Of a DNA stretch of 64,000 bases, positions 25,112 to 38,964 are shown piece after piece. The stretch comes from an uncultured Bacilli bacterium (GTDB taxonomy: Bacteria; Bacillota_I; Bacilli_A; RFN20; CAG-449): contig CANQWG010000001.1 of assembly GCA_947627505.1 (NCBI GenBank), positions 9,216-73,215 of the forward strand, read 5' to 3'. Within the stretch, counting starts at the first letter, position 1, and each line of letters begins with the position of its first letter. The notes under the pieces were generated by a model that did not search any database, was not told the origin of the DNA, and saw only the letters and a program-made list of their open reading frames with translations. Both the position numbers and the translations under genes were made by a program.

Positions 25112-25188
25112 GCTCCAATAGCTCAAGTGGATAGAGCACAGGTCTTCGAAACCTGGTGTTGTAGGTTCGAGTCCTATTTGGAGCGCCA
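25112..25188 (+). tRNA. tRNA-Arg (anticodon TCG)
   Basis: Manual cloverleaf: acceptor GCTCCAA/TTGGAGC, U8, D-stem GCTC/GAGC, anticodon stem CAGGT/ACCTG, loop CTTCGAA, T-loop TTCGAGT, encoded CCA. Confidence 0.75.
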
Positions 25189-25630
25189 AAAGAGTATAAT
25201 CCGAATTGTTTACTTGTTATGAGTGAATATCTCGGATTTTTTTGCTTCAAATAATAGCCATATGCAGACAAATAGCCGACGAAGTGCAAGGCTTTGTCGA
25301 CAGATCATTAGTTCTGCATTGAAATCACCTCTTGAAAATCATTTTGCATTCAGCTATATAGGAAAGTTGCCGCAGATAATTAGGGTTCGAAAAGAAAAAT
25401 TTTTCTCGGCGTATTCAAAAAAGGTATAAAAAACTGTTGACGTTCTCCACAAATCATCGACATCGACCATATTTATCAAAGTGACGGCCAACCTTTCTAT
25501 CAAGTTAAAGAGAATTGTACTTGCTTTTATAATACATATTAATTTTCAATATGGTTATTCACTTGATTTTTTACCGAAAATTGTTGTACCATTTATTTGC
25601 TATTAATAAGTTGATTAAAGAGATTAGAAA

Positions 25631-27442
25631 ATGAAAAATGCAAGGCGAATATATTCAGTATACGGATTATCTATTATTTTAATATTAATTTTTACTCTTT
25701 TGACGGGTTGTCAAAGCACCGATAAAAGTAATTCCTTTATAGATACTTCTAGTTTGCAATATACAGAGTTTATCTATGATGCAAATAAAGATCAAACAAA
25801 GGTAGTATGGGAAGCTACTTTAACCAATGATACAATATTTAATTTTGATAATTTTTCTATAACTTTCAAATTGTATAATCAATCTAATCTTGTAAAAACC
25901 GATACATATCATTACAACAGAGGAGTAAAGCATGGTGAGGAATATACTGGCTCTTTTAATTTTTATGTTGATGGCAAGATTGATTCGATAGAGTATGTTT
26001 CTTGGACAGCGAATTATATTTCTTTTTGGGATACATATAAAATCTGGATTATCGCTATGAGTGTCGTGGCGGGAGTTGCTACACTTATTTATATTATTGT
26101 AATGATAGTCAAAGATCTTGAGTTTGAAGATATATGGGATGCGACCGTGGAGTTTTTTTCAAATCTCGTATGGGTAGCTATTGATTTTTCGATTTTGTTT
26201 GCCGGCATTATTTTTGGAATCATCACCTCATATTGGGTGCCGATCCTAATTGTGTTGGGCGGAATAGTTGCGTTTATTGTTTTGGTTTTATTGGCACAGT
26301 TAATCAAATTTATTGTAGTCGCGATAGCCGATACGATAGCCGATAATATCGATTTCGGCATCTGTGGCGGTGATATTCAAAGCGTTGTTGAGGAAAATAA
26401 GTATTTCGACTCTTCGCGCGAAAATATAGCAGATTATATTGATGATGAAAATGCTTTAATGCTCTTTACTGTCGAACAGCTAAAAGAATATTGCAAAAAC
26501 AATGAAATAAAGGGATATTCATCATTAAACAAACCCGCGCTTGTAGATTTGATAATCCATTCTAAAAAATCGGAAACAGAACCCCTAAAAAGCAAAAAAA
26601 ACTGTCAAACGACTCCGAAAAAAATCAGTAAATTAACTTTTGATGATATCGCAGGGCTTGATGAAGCAAAAAACGCTTTTCGGGAAAAGGTTGTATATGC
26701 ATTTTTACACAAAGATTTATATGAAAAATACGGCAAAAAAGTTGGAGGCGGATTGTTGCTATATGGATTGCCCGGCACGGGTAAAACAATGTTTGCGGAA
26801 GCTGCTTCAAACGAAACCGATTCCCTATTTATCCCGATTAAGTGTTCCGACATCAAGTCAAAATGGTATGGCGAATCGGAAACAAATGTCAAAAGCATTT
26901 TCTTAAAGGCAAGAAAAGCAAAGAAGGCGATTATTTTCTTTGATGAGTTCGAGGCAATTGGTGCAAAAAGAACCGACGACGGCAATAATCTCGATAATAA
27001 TCTTGTGCCGCAAATTTTGGCTGAGATGCAAGGCGTTGGCTCGAATGATCAAAATTGCGTGATATTAGTGATAGCGGCAACAAATAAACCATGGATGATC
27101 GATAGTGCTTTTTTGAGACCAGGACGCTTTGATGAAAAAATATATATTCCTTTGCCTGATTTTGCAGCGAGGAAAAAACTTTTTCAATTAAAATTGCAAT
27201 CTGTGCCACAAGAAGAATTAGATTACGACTACCTTGCCAACATTACCGACGGATTCAACTGTGCAGATATCGGAGCATTTTGCGATAAACTGAAAATGCT
27301 TGCAATCAAAAAAAGCATTGCAGACAATATTGAATATCCGATAACTATGCAGTATGTCAAAGAATTGGAAGGCACGGTGAAATCAACTGTTTCCGACGAA
27401 GATATCGTTAAACTTTTGGAATTTAAGGAGCAATACAGCTAA
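25631..27442 (+). CDS. Membrane-anchored AAA+ ATPase. It has an N-terminal lipoprotein / extracytoplasmic domain, three TM helices, a SAP/Rho-N-like motif and a C-terminal AAA domain.
   Basis: Lipobox LLTGCQS, hydrophobic segments, LKEYCKNNEIKGYSSLNKPALVDLI (SAP/Rho_N-like), Walker A GLPGTGKT and Walker B IIFFDEFE. Confidence 0.6.
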   Translation: MKNARRIYSVYGLSIILILIFTLLTGCQSTDKSNSFIDTSSLQYTEFIYDANKDQTKVVWEATLTNDTIFNFDNFSITFKLYNQSNLVKTDTYHYNRGVKHGEEYTGSFNFYVDGKIDSIEYVSWTANYISFWDTYKIWIIAMSVVAGVATLIYIIVMIVKDLEFEDIWDATVEFFSNLVWVAIDFSILFAGIIFGIITSYWVPILIVLGGIVAFIVLVLLAQLIKFIVVAIADTIADNIDFGICGGDIQSVVEENKYFDSSRENIADYIDDENALMLFTVEQLKEYCKNNEIKGYSSLNKPALVDLIIHSKKSETEPLKSKKNCQTTPKKISKLTFDDIAGLDEAKNAFREKVVYAFLHKDLYEKYGKKVGGGLLLYGLPGTGKTMFAEAASNETDSLFIPIKCSDIKSKWYGESETNVKSIFLKARKAKKAIIFFDEFEAIGAKRTDDGNNLDNNLVPQILAEMQGVGSNDQNCVILVIAATNKPWMIDSAFLRPGRFDEKIYIPLPDFAARKKLFQLKLQSVPQEELDYDYLANITDGFNCADIGAFCDKLKMLAIKKSIADNIEYPITMQYVKELEGTVKSTVSDEDIVKLLEFKEQYS

Positions 27443-30262: not shown

Positions 30263-31558
30263 ATGTATCGTATTGCTATTGAAAAATTGTTGAAATGGAA
30301 AGAGAGTAAGCATCGGAAACCATTAATTATTGAAGGAGCCCGGCAAGTTGGAAAAACTTGGCTGATGAAAGAATTTGGAAAACAAGCATATGGTGATGTA
30401 GCATATATTAATTTTGACTCCAATTCGAGAATGGCAGAGTTATTTGCGTCCGATTTGAATGTTGAGCGTTTGATTATGGGACTAGAAATTTACATTGGTC
30501 GGAAAATAGATTCAAAAAATACACTTATAATTTTTGATGAAATACAGGAAGTTCCAAGAGCCTTAGCATCGTTAAAATATTTTTATGAGAATGCACCTCA
30601 ATATCATATTGTTTGTGCTGGATCTTTGCTAGGTATTGCCTTGCATCACGGCACTTCTTTTCCGGTTGGTAAAGTAGATTTTTTAAAACTAAATCCTCTT
30701 TCTTTTCAAGAATTTTTAATGGCAATAGGCAAACAGCAATTTGCGGAACTATTAATCAAGCATGATTATGATATGGTTACAAAGTTTAAGCAAATTTATA
30801 TTGATGCGTTAAAACAATATTATTTTGTTGGTGGAATGCCTGAAGCAGTACAAAGTTTTACTGAAAGCGCTGATTTTAATGAAGTTCGAAAAATACAAAA
30901 AAATATTTTGACTGCTTACGAACAAGATTTTTCAAAACATGCACCTCATGAGATTGTTCCAAAACTTCGTATGATATGGAACAATATTCCATCACAACTT
31001 GCAAAAGAAAACAAAAAGTTTATCTATGGTCTCATTCGAGAAGGAGCACGAGCAAAGGAATATGAAACAGCGATTATGTGGCTAACTGATTGCGGATTAG
31101 TTCATAAAATCAGTCGTGTAAATTCTATTGGACTACCTTTAAAAGCATACGAAGACATAAAAGCATTTAAATTGTTTTTGGTAGATGTGGGGTTACTTAG
31201 TTGTATGACAGGATTACAGCAAGGCACTTTGCTTGATGGAAATAATCTTTTCACCGAATTTAAAGGAGCTCTTACAGAACAGTATGTTTGCCAACAATTA
31301 AAAACACTAGAAGATATTGGTATATACTATTACACCAATGACAGAGGCTCTTGTGAAATTGATTTTATTCTAGATGGAGGAAAACGCATTATTCCTGTAG
31401 AAGTAAAGGCAGAAATTAACCTCAAATCCAAAAGCTTGAAAACTTACAAAGATAAATTTAATCCTGAAATTTCTTTACGCACTTCAATGGCAAACTATAA
31501 ACAAGAAGAATGGCTTTTAAATCTTCCATTATACGCAATAGAACAAATTGAAATATAA
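30263..31558 (+). CDS. AAA-family ATPase with a DUF4143 C-terminal domain
   Basis: N-terminus KLLKWKESKHRKPLIIEGARQVGKTWLMKEFG; 431 aa. Confidence 0.7.
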   Translation: MYRIAIEKLLKWKESKHRKPLIIEGARQVGKTWLMKEFGKQAYGDVAYINFDSNSRMAELFASDLNVERLIMGLEIYIGRKIDSKNTLIIFDEIQEVPRALASLKYFYENAPQYHIVCAGSLLGIALHHGTSFPVGKVDFLKLNPLSFQEFLMAIGKQQFAELLIKHDYDMVTKFKQIYIDALKQYYFVGGMPEAVQSFTESADFNEVRKIQKNILTAYEQDFSKHAPHEIVPKLRMIWNNIPSQLAKENKKFIYGLIREGARAKEYETAIMWLTDCGLVHKISRVNSIGLPLKAYEDIKAFKLFLVDVGLLSCMTGLQQGTLLDGNNLFTEFKGALTEQYVCQQLKTLEDIGIYYYTNDRGSCEIDFILDGGKRIIPVEVKAEINLKSKSLKTYKDKFNPEISLRTSMANYKQEEWLLNLPLYAIEQIEI

Positions 31559-36155: not shown

Positions 36156-36232
<77 letters not shown>

Positions 36233-36258
36233 GTTTAAATTATTAAATAGTCAATTTT

Positions 36259-36335
36259 GTCCCAGTAGCTCAGCTGGATAGAGTACCGGTTTCCGAAGCC
36301 GTTGGTCGTAGGTTCGAATCCTATCTGGGACACCA
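36259..36335 (+). tRNA. tRNA-Arg (anticodon CCG)
   Basis: Cloverleaf: acceptor GTCCCAG/CTGGGAC, anticodon loop TTCCGAA, CCA. Confidence 0.85.
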
Positions 36336-36522
36336 ATCCCAATCTCTGGTAAATTACATAGGTTGGGATTTTTATTTATAAAAAATCTATATAAATTAAA
36401 AACACTTGTACAATTCATTGCCAAAATCTTAAGATTACCTAATTAACGTTATATTAACATTTATAATACTCGGGCTTGGAATTTTAATTTTTTTTTGTTA
36501 AAATCTATTTTGTTAAAAATAT

Positions 36523-36605
36523 GCCCTCTTGGCGGAACTGGCAGACGCGCTAGACTTAGGATCTAGTTCTCACGAGTGCGGGTTCAAATCCCGTGGAGGG
36601 CACCA
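36523..36605 (+). tRNA. tRNA-Leu (anticodon TAG), long variable arm
   Basis: Acceptor GCCCTCT/GGAGGGC, anticodon stem CTAGA/TCTAG with loop CTTAGGA, long variable arm, CCA. Confidence 0.85.
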
Positions 36606-36618
36606 TTTGTTATTAAAT

Positions 36619-36640
36619 GCCCTATTTCTAGGGTTTTTTT
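36619..36640 (+). terminator. Rho-independent terminator downstream of tRNA-Leu(TAG)
   Basis: Hairpin GCCCTATTTCTAGGGT followed by T7. Confidence 0.6.
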
Positions 36641-36890
36641 ATTCTCACGTAAAGGAATTGTAAGGGAAAATTTTAATGGTTCAAATTTTTAGATTTGTAA
36701 AATACATCTCACACTTATGTTATAGCCTTGGTGGTTTGCATTCTTTTGACATTTATTAAAAACGAATAGATTCACCTAAAAATAGGATTTTTTGAAATTC
36801 GTTTTTAATATCAAAACTATCTTAATTTGACAAAAAGACTTAACAATAATAAAATTGAATTACTAATTTTAATAAAAACTAGGAGATTTT

Positions 36891-37157
36891 ATGGATTATA
36901 TATACTATACAAAAAATACTTGTTCTAAAAGAATTCAAGTATCACTAGATGGTAATGTTGTTAGTAGCGTGAAATTTTTAGATGGTGGATGTCCTGGAAA
37001 TTTACAAGCTCTTCCTCGCTTGGTTGCCGGTATGACTGTGACTGTAGAGGAGGTTGAAAAAAAATTAAGTGGTATTAACTGTGGATATCGTGGCACTTCT
37101 TGCGCTGATCAATTATCAAAAGCGGTAAGAGAAGCATATCAAAAACTGCATTCATAA
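36891..37157 (+). CDS. TSCPD-domain small protein (TIGR03905-like, 4-Cys)
   Basis: 88 aa with GGCPGNLQAL and GYRGTSCADQL motifs. Confidence 0.5.
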   Translation: MDYIYYTKNTCSKRIQVSLDGNVVSSVKFLDGGCPGNLQALPRLVAGMTVTVEEVEKKLSGINCGYRGTSCADQLSKAVREAYQKLHS

Positions 37158-37177
37158 ATTTAAAATTTGGTGTCATT

Positions 37178-37618
37178 ATGGAAGAGTATTTAAAATTAGA
37201 AGGCCAAATTTGCTTTCCGCTTTATGTTTGTTCAAAAGAAATTATTAGAAAATATAAACCATTTCTAGAAGAATTAAATTTAACATATACCCAATATATT
37301 ACGATGTTGGTGCTTTGGGAAGTTGAAAGCATCAATGTTACAGATTTAGGTGAAAGACTTTACCTTGATTCAGGAACATTGACACCCTTGTTGAAAAAAC
37401 TTGAAACTAAAGGTTATATAACTAGAAAAAGAGGCAATGTCGATGAGCGGAATTTGATTGTGACAATCACTGAAAAAGGTTTGGCTTTAAAAGAAAAGGC
37501 AAAGCCGATTCCATGGCAACTTGCTTCTTATGTAAAACTAGAAAAGGAAGAGGTTGTTGCGTTATATAAAATTTCACGCAAATTGATGAATGCTTTGCAA
37601 GATAAAAAAAGGGACTAA
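37178..37618 (+). CDS. MarR-family regulator (OhrR-like)
   Basis: LTYTQYITMLVLWE…LTPLLKKLETKGYITRKR is a classic MarR/OhrR wing-helix. Confidence 0.7.
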   Translation: MEEYLKLEGQICFPLYVCSKEIIRKYKPFLEELNLTYTQYITMLVLWEVESINVTDLGERLYLDSGTLTPLLKKLETKGYITRKRGNVDERNLIVTITEKGLALKEKAKPIPWQLASYVKLEKEEVVALYKISRKLMNALQDKKRD

Positions 37619-37685
37619 CTTGAGTCACCTTTTTTTATAAAAGCATCTATAATAAAAAAAGCCTATTTACTAGGCGATTAATAAT

Positions 37686-37771
37686 TGGTGCCGCTGGTCG
37701 GACTCGAACCGACAAGGATGCACTCCGCTCGATTTTGAGTCGAGTTTGTTTACCAATTTCAACACAGCGGC
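37686..37771 (-). tRNA. tRNA-Leu (anticodon CAA), long variable arm
   Basis: The reverse complement gives acceptor GCCGCTG/CAGCGGC, anticodon stem CTCGA/TCGAG with loop CTCAAAA, a long variable arm and CCA. Confidence 0.85.
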
Positions 37772-37874
37772 ATTTCGCAATGAGCATTCATATTTTACCA
37801 TATTCTATTTTTAAATCAATAAAATTTCTAGGATTCTATTAGATTACTTTGATGAGGAGACGAGGTGATATAGT

Positions 37875-38813
37875 ATGAGCAAGCATCGAATTATTTTAAA
37901 AGAAATCGCTGAAGAAGTAAACTATTCCATTAACACCGTTTCAAGAGCGCTTCGCGATTGTGTCGACATTAGCGATCGAACTAAAAAGATCATTCGCGAA
38001 AAAGCAATCGAATTAGGATATTACATTGAAAAAAAACCACTTTATACGCGTATAAAGAATCGTCCGCTTATCGCCTTTGTTTATAATAATTTTTTCGATT
38101 ATTATTTTATCAAAATGTCAGATATAATACTTAAATATTTTGAAGATAAATATGAGTCGGTATTTATCTTTAGGCAAATCAAGAAAGAAAAAATCGGTTT
38201 GGATGATTTGAAATTTTTAATGGATAATGATGTAGAAATCATCATATCTTATATTAATTTTGAAAAAGATGTTTTGAATTTTGTTGAATTATATGGTCTT
38301 ACAGTGGTGCTAATCGGTTTTAATTCGCGCTTTTTAAAATGTAATTGTGCTTATTGTGACGAAAGGAAAAAAATAAATTTGGCAGTCGACTATTTCCTAA
38401 AACAACGTATTCACAAAGTGTATTATATTTTGGATTCTGATCTTTTGAAAGCAAAAGAAATGAAAGATCTATTTAATAAAAAATATTTAAAAAAAACTTT
38501 GGGAACAAGTGTGGAATATATTGATCTTAATCATTTTGAAGATCAACTTAATGAAAACACACTGCATTCTAAAGATGGCTTTTTATGTTCAAGTAGCGTT
38601 AGTGTTGAAAAAATAAAAAAATTGAAAAGTATAAAAAATAATCTTATCTTTATTATAAACGATAATTTTGAATGTGCGGATTTTAATGTAGTTAGTGTTA
38701 CTTTAAATTATGAAGAAGTTGCAGAAGAAATATGCAATATTGTGTATAAACTTTTAGAAGGTAAAAAAGATATTTATCATAAAATAATATATGATGTTTA
38801 TATAAAAGAATAA
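37875..38813 (+). CDS. LacI-like transcriptional regulator
   Basis: N-terminal HTH IILKEIAEEVNYSINTVSRALRD. The C-terminal domain is divergent. Confidence 0.55.
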   Translation: MSKHRIILKEIAEEVNYSINTVSRALRDCVDISDRTKKIIREKAIELGYYIEKKPLYTRIKNRPLIAFVYNNFFDYYFIKMSDIILKYFEDKYESVFIFRQIKKEKIGLDDLKFLMDNDVEIIISYINFEKDVLNFVELYGLTVVLIGFNSRFLKCNCAYCDERKKINLAVDYFLKQRIHKVYYILDSDLLKAKEMKDLFNKKYLKKTLGTSVEYIDLNHFEDQLNENTLHSKDGFLCSSSVSVEKIKKLKSIKNNLIFIINDNFECADFNVVSVTLNYEEVAEEICNIVYKLLEGKKDIYHKIIYDVYIKE

Positions 38814-38888
38814 GAGCGAAAAGATTTAGCAAACTAATCGAAACACTTGATTTTTCTTTTTATAAAAATTATTATAAAAAAGCCTTTT

Positions 38889-38964
38889 GCCGACATAGCT
38901 CAATTGGCAGAGCAATTGATTTGTAATCAATAGGTTGGCGGTTCGATTCCGTTTGTCGGCACCA
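38889..38964 (+). tRNA. tRNA-Thr (anticodon TGT)
   Basis: Acceptor GCCGACA/TGTCGGC, anticodon stem ATTGA/TCAAT with loop TTTGTAA, T-loop TTCGATT, CCA. Confidence 0.8.

Follow-up and report, generated by a model that had tools for sequence, protein, structure and literature searches.

A 64,000-nucleotide stretch of an uncultured Bacilli genome (GenBank assembly GCA_947627505.1, contig CANQWG010000001.1, positions 9,216 to 73,215 of the forward strand; "the window" below means this whole stretch) carries a gene for a 603-residue protein in which a predicted lipoprotein with an extracytoplasmic immunoglobulin (Ig)-like domain and three transmembrane (TM) helices is fused to a single classical AAA ATPase module. 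By analogy with characterised members of the AAA clade, we read the product as a membrane-anchored, protease-less unfoldase or extractase that would form hexamers and act on membrane-proximal substrates, and we put the chances of this reading at about even. Among gut and rumen Firmicutes, the gene has spread horizontally as an accessory trait and is not a core function. An earlier note on this DNA had described a lipoprotein domain, three TM helices, a SAP/Rho_N-like motif and an AAA module within one reading frame at 25631..27442, and all of these parts were found there.

Architecture of the protein and its two modules

The reading frame and its parts, all on the forward strand, are as follows.

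25631..27442, + strand: complete reading frame of 603 amino acids (aa) plus stop codon (translation)
25631..25711, + strand: predicted lipoprotein signal peptide, aa 1–27, with lipobox LLTGC (translation; invariance of Cys27)
25712..26035, + strand: predicted extracytoplasmic Ig-like beta-sandwich, aa 28–135 (AlphaFold2 fold)
26039..26305, + strand: predicted membrane anchor, with TM1 (aa 137–161), an acidic juxtamembrane loop and a TM2/TM3 hairpin (aa ~178–225) (hydropathy, AlphaFold2 helices, translation)
26351..26455, + strand: acidic, poorly conserved linker, aa 241–275, 10 D/E against 2 K/R (translation, alignment; predicted local distance difference test (pLDDT) score <50)
26456..26566, + strand: helix-extended-helix (HeH) motif, Rho_N/SAP-like, aa 276–312 (sub-threshold Pfam Rho_N match, AlphaFold2 helices, hits in homologues)
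26567..26635, + strand: basic, poorly conserved linker, aa 313–335, 7 K/R against 2 D/E (translation, alignment)
26636..27160, + strand: large (alpha/beta) AAA subdomain, aa 336–510 (PF00004; coordinates checked by translation)
26765-26788, + strand: Walker A motif GLPGTGKT (translation)
26861-26872, + strand: pore loop 1, KWYG (translation)
26930-26953, + strand: Walker B motif IIFFDEFE (translation)
27074-27133, + strand: second region of homology (SRH) with arginine fingers (translation)
27161..27439, + strand: AAA lid subdomain and C-terminal helix, aa 511–603 (AAA_lid_3; weak Vps4_C; alignment to p97 D2)

Judged by its motifs, the C-terminal half is a classical AAA ATPase of the PF00004 clade, with Walker A and B motifs, a sensor-1 asparagine and an SRH with two arginine fingers (ATNKPWMIDSAFLRPGRFD, containing ATN...LRPGRFD). 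PF00004 matched at 120 bits (cutoff 21, E 1e-34) and AAA_lid_3 above threshold (E 7e-7), with Vps4_C falling below its own (14.5 bits against 21.3). Across the 24 full-length homologues aligned, no variation was seen in Walker A, KWYG, Walker B, the sensor-1 Asn or the two SRH arginines. Neither a peptidase nor any other enzymatic domain was found in Pfam and NCBIfam scans of the protein, and the Pfam scan gave no known signalling domain. Residues 327–598 align with p97 D2 in PDB at 38% identity; the top PDB matches are p97/Cdc48 D2 domains (the single D2 chain 6g2w at 185 bits), and the NCBIfam models for Cdc48, PAN, CdvC and FtsH score ~180–210 bits each, far short of the respective cutoffs. 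These scores, like those of the PDB matches, lie too close together for the module to be assigned to Vps4, Cdc48 or PAN. Its earlier description as Vps4/katanin-type is borne out only in part, the Cdc48 D2, PAN, CdvC and FtsH models scoring alike.

Full-length homologues of ~580–630 aa fall into >100 sequence clusters at 53–68% identity, and the whole architecture is common to them. Mean pairwise identity is highest in the large AAA subdomain (0.87), followed by the lid and C-terminus (0.63), the HeH motif (0.58), the outer domain (0.54), the TM region (0.50) and the linkers (0.21–0.24). To judge from these alignments, purifying selection on the motor is very strong, which argues against a decaying fusion. 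The C-terminal residues of the window protein are QYS (27431-27439), and many family members likewise have an aromatic penultimate residue (EQY[S/R/G], ELYC, NQFG); others end in KKF or FMN, so that the aromatic tail is not universal. The aromatic tails of the family recall the HbYX tails that dock Cdc48, PAN and Mpa to proteasomes.

The N-terminus (MKNARRIYSVYGLSIILILIFTLLTGC) carries a predicted lipoprotein signal, which reads MKNARRIYSVYGLSIILILIFTLLTG up to the cleavage point and then C; the lipobox ends at Cys27, the predicted lipidated N-terminus, and this cysteine is invariant in 75 aligned relatives (24/24 full-length homologues and 51/51 relatives of the N-terminal module, or N-module). 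The hydrophilic stretch that follows (residues 28–135, ~108 aa) is predicted to form a beta-sandwich (pLDDT 92) and has a conserved N-x-T-I-Y/F motif around N66. Hydropathy and AlphaFold2 together place the three TM helices at ~137–161, 178–200 and 201–225. Additional hydrophobic hairpins, read from the sequences, are present in several variants (one in L047, P0137, P0173 and P0186, two in P0187), giving five or seven TM helices, and the count, in staying odd, fits a topology with the lipoprotein outside and the ATPase inside. The full-length AlphaFold2 model consists of a beta-sandwich (30–130), three long helices (137–239), a helix-loop-helix (281–310) and a normal AAA fold.

A HMMER scan with residues 1–330 against 1.84 billion representatives returned 175 relatives, many of which are 215–235-aa proteins that match residues ~13–229 and stop just after TM3. 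These stand-alone N-modules have their own stop codons and ordinary chromosomal contexts, with no AAA gene nearby. Lipoproteins of ~220 aa with lipobox, beta-sandwich and three TM helices are found, for example, at L099:169-840, L100:314-979, L101:8001-8663 and L102:168-839. The alignment of 51 N-module members retains the lipobox Cys, N-x-T-I-Y/F, Y136 and W202; none of the 51 gave a Pfam match, and a profile search of PDB gave none for the module. The N-module also occurs as stand-alone genes, and the window protein thus joins two independent units: the N-terminal half is an undescribed family of its own, here fused to an AAA motor.

The two modules are joined by linkers that flank the HeH motif (LMLFTVEQLKEYCKNNEIKGYSSLNKPALVDLI). 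In the window protein, Pfam Rho_N matches residues 276–312 at 15 bits (E 0.02–0.025), below the cutoff of 24.9, and AlphaFold2 places helices at 281–290 and 301–310. Many homologues have a precomputed PF07498 match, two also have PF02037, and P0087 has two copies of the motif.

Relatives, distribution and genomic context

The closest AAA sequences are soluble proteins of 375–430 aa from metagenome-assembled genomes (MAGs) of gut Clostridia and Anaeroplasma, which are 41–51% identical to the window protein (211–257 bits) across the AAA module and C-terminal helix. Archaeal proteins of ~365 aa come next (42–47% identity), followed by p97 D2 (38%). The motifs IIFFDEFE and PW-IDSA are common to the window protein and its soluble relatives; the latter were themselves retrieved with two search patterns, of which IIFFDEFE was one. 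Several of the soluble proteins have a helical N-terminus that, by eye, could be called MIT-like, with no MIT domain detected in them by Pfam, and one aligns over its full length to the CdvC model, below threshold.

A Snf7-like gene of ~195 aa lies directly upstream of the soluble AAA gene in 7/16 loci (L054:897-3661, L057:7352-10840, L081:1993-4730, L056, L062, L068 and L091). The products of these small genes matched Snf7 weakly and over nearly the full length (E 4e-5 and 0.01), and the pair is accompanied by another coiled-coil gene and by one for a protein with SPFH/Band_7 and zinc-ribbon parts. We regard these loci as putative bacterial ESCRT-III/Vps4-like operons, the presumed substrates of the soluble relatives being membrane-bound polymers. 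Transfers of Vps4-like AAA+ proteins to bacteria, with "membrane proximal action", have been noted earlier, as have links between Vps4-like and Snf7 proteins in bacteria (PMC11237479). Two tandem copies of the same AAA module after a helical N-terminus were also observed, at L053:9968-11947 and L059:9704-11677 (657–659 aa); this is a Cdc48-like duplication within this bacterial clade.

With one genome scanned per species, a full-length relative of the window protein was present in ~45 of 185,579 species. All carriers are MAGs from gut or rumen, and they belong to Clostridia, Christensenellales, Erysipelotrichaceae, Anaeroplasma/Acholeplasma-like Bacilli and, on short contigs, two Gastranaerophilales/Vampirovibrio bins; JGI metagenomes added only ~10 further relatives. 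Searches by tblastn of phage (50,697) and plasmid (72,556) records gave only AAA-domain-level matches to FtsH and Cdc48 (≤37% identity), and IMG/VR gave six distant matches (≤32%), with nothing beyond generic AAA similarity.

Clustering by blastp of the genes within ±4 positions at 45 family loci revealed no conserved operon partner; the family gene stands alone, and its context varies from locus to locus. Neighbours were further scanned at 44 species-level loci, with Pfam on 248 proteins (±4 genes) and PADLOC on 131 (±2 genes), a coarse survey in which the top families are listed. Most neighbours are housekeeping or miscellaneous genes, such as those for aminoacyl-tRNA synthetases, CTP synthase, IMPDH, DnaB and SmpB. 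Among the families listed for the 131 neighbours at ±2 genes, HTH_26 occurs five times, HTH_3 four times, and TetR_N, Resolvase and AAA_14/DUF4143 three times each. Defence or mobile-element types among the matches listed at ±2 genes are one type IIG restriction-modification (RM) protein, two UvrD/GajB-like proteins, one Schlafen-type helicase and the three resolvases, and one SWI2_SNF2 match at ±3–4 genes is the R subunit of the type I RM system of L006. Defence-island association, which had been proposed as a check on the gene's role, is thus weak, without enrichment, and housekeeping neighbours predominate, the L004/L006 cassette described below being the exception. Nor is the gene a core housekeeping gene in a conserved, non-mobile context, as the earlier note had allowed it might be, given its occurrence in ~45 species and its varied surroundings.

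One clade is clearly mobile. In the P0016 clade, 67% identical to the window protein, a 2,463-bp cassette comprises a 67-aa HTH_26 (Xre-type) gene and the 608-aa AAA gene, and its two copies (L004:7524-9986 and L006:1643-4105) are 99.96% identical. One copy is inside an ICE (integrative and conjugative element), between type IV secretion system (T4SS) genes and an adhesin/VirD4 region; the other is beside an insertion sequence (IS), a resolvase, a type I RM cluster and other defence-like genes. Another homologue abuts a large serine recombinase, and the P0080 homologue occupies a fixed chromosomal site in many samples. A giant surface protein (>2,400 aa) with Peptidase_S8/PA/fn3_5/LRR_5 domains is encoded at L012:15257-17809, near a fused member, and at L101:11400-16663, near a stand-alone N-module, in each case at a distance of a few genes, which may reflect shared synteny or coincidence.

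Sequence variation within clades is concentrated in the linkers. In the outer domain, 25 near-identical ICE-clade variants show 0/108 variable sites and 14 variants of the P0080 clade 2/108, and this static surface argues against an arms-race sensor on the outside. Recurrent multi-allelic sites were seen in the 608-aa ICE clade (P0002-P0035), with H/Y/L at position 186 in the juxtamembrane loop and, near the C-terminus, Q/H/K and E/K at 585/586.

At the window locus, the gene order is LacI, GalT, GalK, tRNA-Arg, the AAA gene, an 84-aa ORF (open reading frame) on the reverse strand, a MarR-like gene (600 bp downstream of the AAA gene), a membrane protein, DegV and AAA_14/DUF4143. The tRNA gene, 442 bp upstream of the AAA start codon, is the following feature.

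25112..25188, + strand: tRNA-Arg(TCG) (ARAGORN; Rfam tRNA model 65 bits)

Over ~8 kb to each side of the AAA gene, neither a transposase nor an integrase was called, no direct repeat of the tRNA-Arg 3' end was found downstream in the window, and GC content (0.31–0.37, the same as the surroundings) and skew show no anomaly at the locus. The tRNA-Arg is a neighbour of the gene, and a role as integration site is not supported. The possible transposase remnant of the earlier note was not confirmed: the flanking 84-aa ORF has no Pfam match, and neither it nor the 68-aa ORF upstream has relatives at the other loci fetched. The argument for mobility from this particular locus is thus not supported, and horizontal acquisition is supported for the family (rare, in scattered taxa, in differing contexts and with one mobile cassette) and not for the window copy, which lacks the hallmarks of mobile genetic elements (MGEs).

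The 442-bp leader contains no Rfam element and no convincing terminator or promoter. The protein is identical on eight contigs of ENA and Logan metagenome assemblies. An exact look-up of GalK for empty-site or strain variants returned only an unchanged gene order or contigs that broke off at the tRNA, and the exact junction pattern had no match in JGI metagenomes. Just 3' of the tRNA-Arg, at 25190-25215, the Logan contigs of three runs (ERR10663711-13) end or begin, and the ENA assembly reads through; these breaks reflect either a tRNA repeat or a strain-level junction polymorphism. Further downstream, 2.8 kb from the AAA gene, the stretch 30263-31558 encodes an AAA_14/DUF4143 ATPase that also matches NERD weakly, and the recurrence of this family near members of the AAA family may be coincidence or a shared accessory neighbourhood. 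Five more tRNA genes are clustered at 36156-38964 (Arg-CCT, Arg-CCG, Leu-TAG, Leu-CAA on the reverse strand, and Thr-TGT).

Proposed mode of action and alternatives

FtsH, Cdc48, PAN, Vps4 and Msp1 belong to a clade that hexamerises and threads polypeptide through a pore lined by an aromatic loop. By analogy with these characterised members, six copies of the window protein would form a ring held just under the membrane, in which ATP hydrolysis would drive the aromatic KWYG loops to pull polypeptide through the central pore. Because the protein has no protease domain, the output would be unfolding, extraction or disassembly and not degradation. The N-face of the ring would be turned towards the membrane across the ~100-residue linker that carries the HeH motif, and with this orientation the likely substrates are proteins or polymers embedded in the membrane or associated with it, seized by the parts that they expose to the cytoplasm. 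The HeH motif may serve as an adaptor or substrate-docking domain, at the position held in the soluble relatives by their helical, by-eye MIT-like N-terminus. The Ig-like domain and TM bundle would be an older, independent module that positions the machine and possibly couples it to events at the cell surface. Of the functions suggested in the earlier note (signalling, membrane quality control, abortive infection and secretion), a secretion ATPase is the least likely, because there are no secretion genes among conserved neighbours.

Several observations weigh against a membrane extractase of this kind. No Snf7- or PspA-like gene was found in the window or at the 45 family loci in tblastn searches with the Snf7-like partners of the soluble relatives. 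The HeH motif is missing in P0135, P0167, P0199 and L050 and replaced in L051 by a poly-Asp/Glu stretch, and it therefore cannot be an essential adaptor. The stand-alone N-modules imply that the membrane part functions without any ATPase, and the motor could serve the N-module's own function rather than generic extraction. The full-length AlphaFold2 model is of moderate quality (pLDDT 74.5; predicted template modelling score 0.40).

The most substantial alternative, which we consider unlikely while giving it appreciable weight, is that the gene by itself provides immunity against phages or incoming conjugative elements, or excludes them. Its motor, triggered by or acting on membrane-delivered invader proteins (tape-measure and ejection proteins, holins, T4SS substrates), would block entry or abort infection. 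The patchy distribution resembles that of horizontally transferred genes, the cassette with its Xre-type HTH_26 gene lies in one copy within the T4SS region of an ICE and in the other beside an IS, a resolvase and type I RM genes, one homologue adjoins the serine recombinase, and HTH_26 and Resolvase are among the commonest neighbours; the AAA domain also matches the PADLOC models for IetA (E 5e-34), and a role in defence is proven for P-loop NTPases of the membrane such as Tmn (PMC13001434). Against this, most of the 44 loci lie among housekeeping genes with few defence matches, the family was not found on sequenced phages or plasmids or in IMG/VR, the surface domain is without microdiversity in both clades compared and the window locus lacks MGE hallmarks, and the IetA/IteA match, at 95 bits (cutoff 510), amounts to generic AAA similarity in a gene without an IetS partner. 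A more specific version, in which the lipoprotein–3TM module and a Vps4/Cdc48-like unfoldase make up a one-gene mobile immunity or entry-exclusion machine, is in our view distinctly unlikely; at the site of passage of phage or conjugative DNA through the membrane, it would unfold the proteins of the invader, or membrane partners of its own, or pull them out, and, if true, this would give bacteria an equivalent of the membrane surveillance of the Msp1/Vps4 type.

Transmembrane signalling, to which we give a small chance, would have the Ig-like domain bind a ligand or envelope component and the AAA ring unfold or release a cytoplasmic regulator, much as in the regulated proteolysis of anti-sigma factors, minus the protease. 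The layout of outside sensor, TM segment and inside enzyme would suit this, as would the MarR-like gene downstream in the window and the regulators frequent among the neighbours (HTH_26, HTH_3 and TetR_N); these regulators nevertheless change from locus to locus with none conserved, the stand-alone N-modules lack any output domain, and the protein itself has no known signalling domain. The chance is slimmer still that the HeH motif and basic linker tether chromosomal, plasmid or incoming DNA and place the ring at a DNA–membrane interface, for example in segregation, uptake or exclusion of DNA. Classical AAA proteins of the KWYG type translocate polypeptides, not nucleic acids, no conserved DNA-processing partner was found, the Rho_N match of the window copy is sub-threshold and the HeH motif is absent from the five otherwise intact proteins named above, and these points are set against the Rho_N/SAP Pfam matches of homologues, the adjacent linker with 7 K/R in 23 aa, the two HeH copies of P0087 and the location of one clade in an ICE. 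That the gene is decaying, chimeric and functionless, or an artefact of assembly or annotation, has hardly any probability: its rarity and its MAG-only occurrence point that way, against a full-length architecture in >100 sequence clusters from independent assemblies, invariant catalytic motifs, a large AAA subdomain with 87% mean pairwise identity and an identical protein on eight contigs.

The membrane-anchored unfoldase reading carries implications beyond this gene. To our knowledge, no membrane-anchored classical AAA machine other than the protease FtsH has been characterised in Firmicutes; an AAA ring with a lipid anchor and an external Ig-like domain, and with no protease, would newly couple the cell surface to an ATP-driven unfoldase. 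The presence of the nearest relatives in Snf7-like operons provides a link to the open question of bacterial Vps4-type partners for ESCRT-III-like remodelling. The undescribed N-module, the small ICE cassette in one clade and the single 1.8-kb gene with clear catalytic mutants make this a tractable target. If the protein were a generic envelope-maintenance factor, it would be a modest addition to the catalogue of AAA proteins.

Comparison with known systems

Our literature search found no paper on an architecture of lipobox, external Ig-like domain, HeH motif and AAA module, and both this combination and the N-module family appear to be undescribed. Among membrane-embedded accessory NTPases, Tmn and the KAP P-loop NTPases offer a functional analogy only, as single-gene systems (PMC13001434, PMC12632615); they are a different class of NTPase, in which the TM helices are inserted within the P-loop domain, and no PADLOC Tmn match was obtained here. 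An AAA ATPase with weak defence activity is also described in PMC12632615. The anti-phage or toxin-antitoxin system Iet (IetAS) is closer in sequence, with matches to PADLOC IetA (E 5e-34) and NCBIfam IteA (E 4e-27), yet IetA is soluble and the window protein reaches only 95.5 bits on NF042959, against a cutoff of 510. No IetS-type S8 peptidase is found next to the window gene or among the families listed for the ±2-gene neighbours, and the giant S8 proteins near L012 and L101 are not IetS-like in size or position. On these scores, the IetA/IteA match is best taken as general AAA similarity.

The D2 domains of Cdc48, p97 and VAT include the highest-scoring solved structures, and their SRH and lid are of the same type. 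The window protein, by contrast, is membrane-anchored and has one AAA module only, lacking both D1 and the double-psi-barrel N domain, and TIGR01243 (211 bits against a cutoff of 803) is matched only at profile positions 448–685. The CdvC model NF041006 aligns to residues 321–595 at 194 bits, against a cutoff of 650. Compared with Vps4 and CdvC, the window protein begins with a signal peptide, beta-sandwich, TM helices and HeH motif in place of an MIT domain, its SRH reads RPGRFD, as in Cdc48, PAN and FtsH, and no ESCRT-III (Snf7/CdvB) pairing is seen in the window or at the 45 family loci.

FtsH shares the N-terminal membrane anchor, the small extracytoplasmic domain and the single classical AAA ring under the membrane (TIGR01241, 179 bits against a cutoff of 600). 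The window protein, in contrast, lacks the M41 zinc-metalloprotease (HEXXH) domain and ends after the AAA lid and C-terminal helix; its anchor is a lipoprotein with three TM helices, against two in FtsH, its outer domain is an Ig-like sandwich, and its gene is accessory, neither essential nor core. Msp1/ATAD1, also a membrane-tethered, protease-less, single-ring classical AAA protein, is the best functional analogy for membrane extraction, and the pore loop 1 of Msp1 likewise has a Trp-Tyr aromatic pair. Msp1 differs in that its N-terminus has a lone TM helix and that lipobox, HeH motif and extracytoplasmic domain are all absent from it, and no specific sequence relationship between the two emerged. 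By the tests that define FtsH, Vps4/CdvC, Cdc48 and IetA, the window protein stands outside each of these families and within the classical AAA superfamily, and, by analogy, it probably works most like Msp1, or like FtsH minus its protease.

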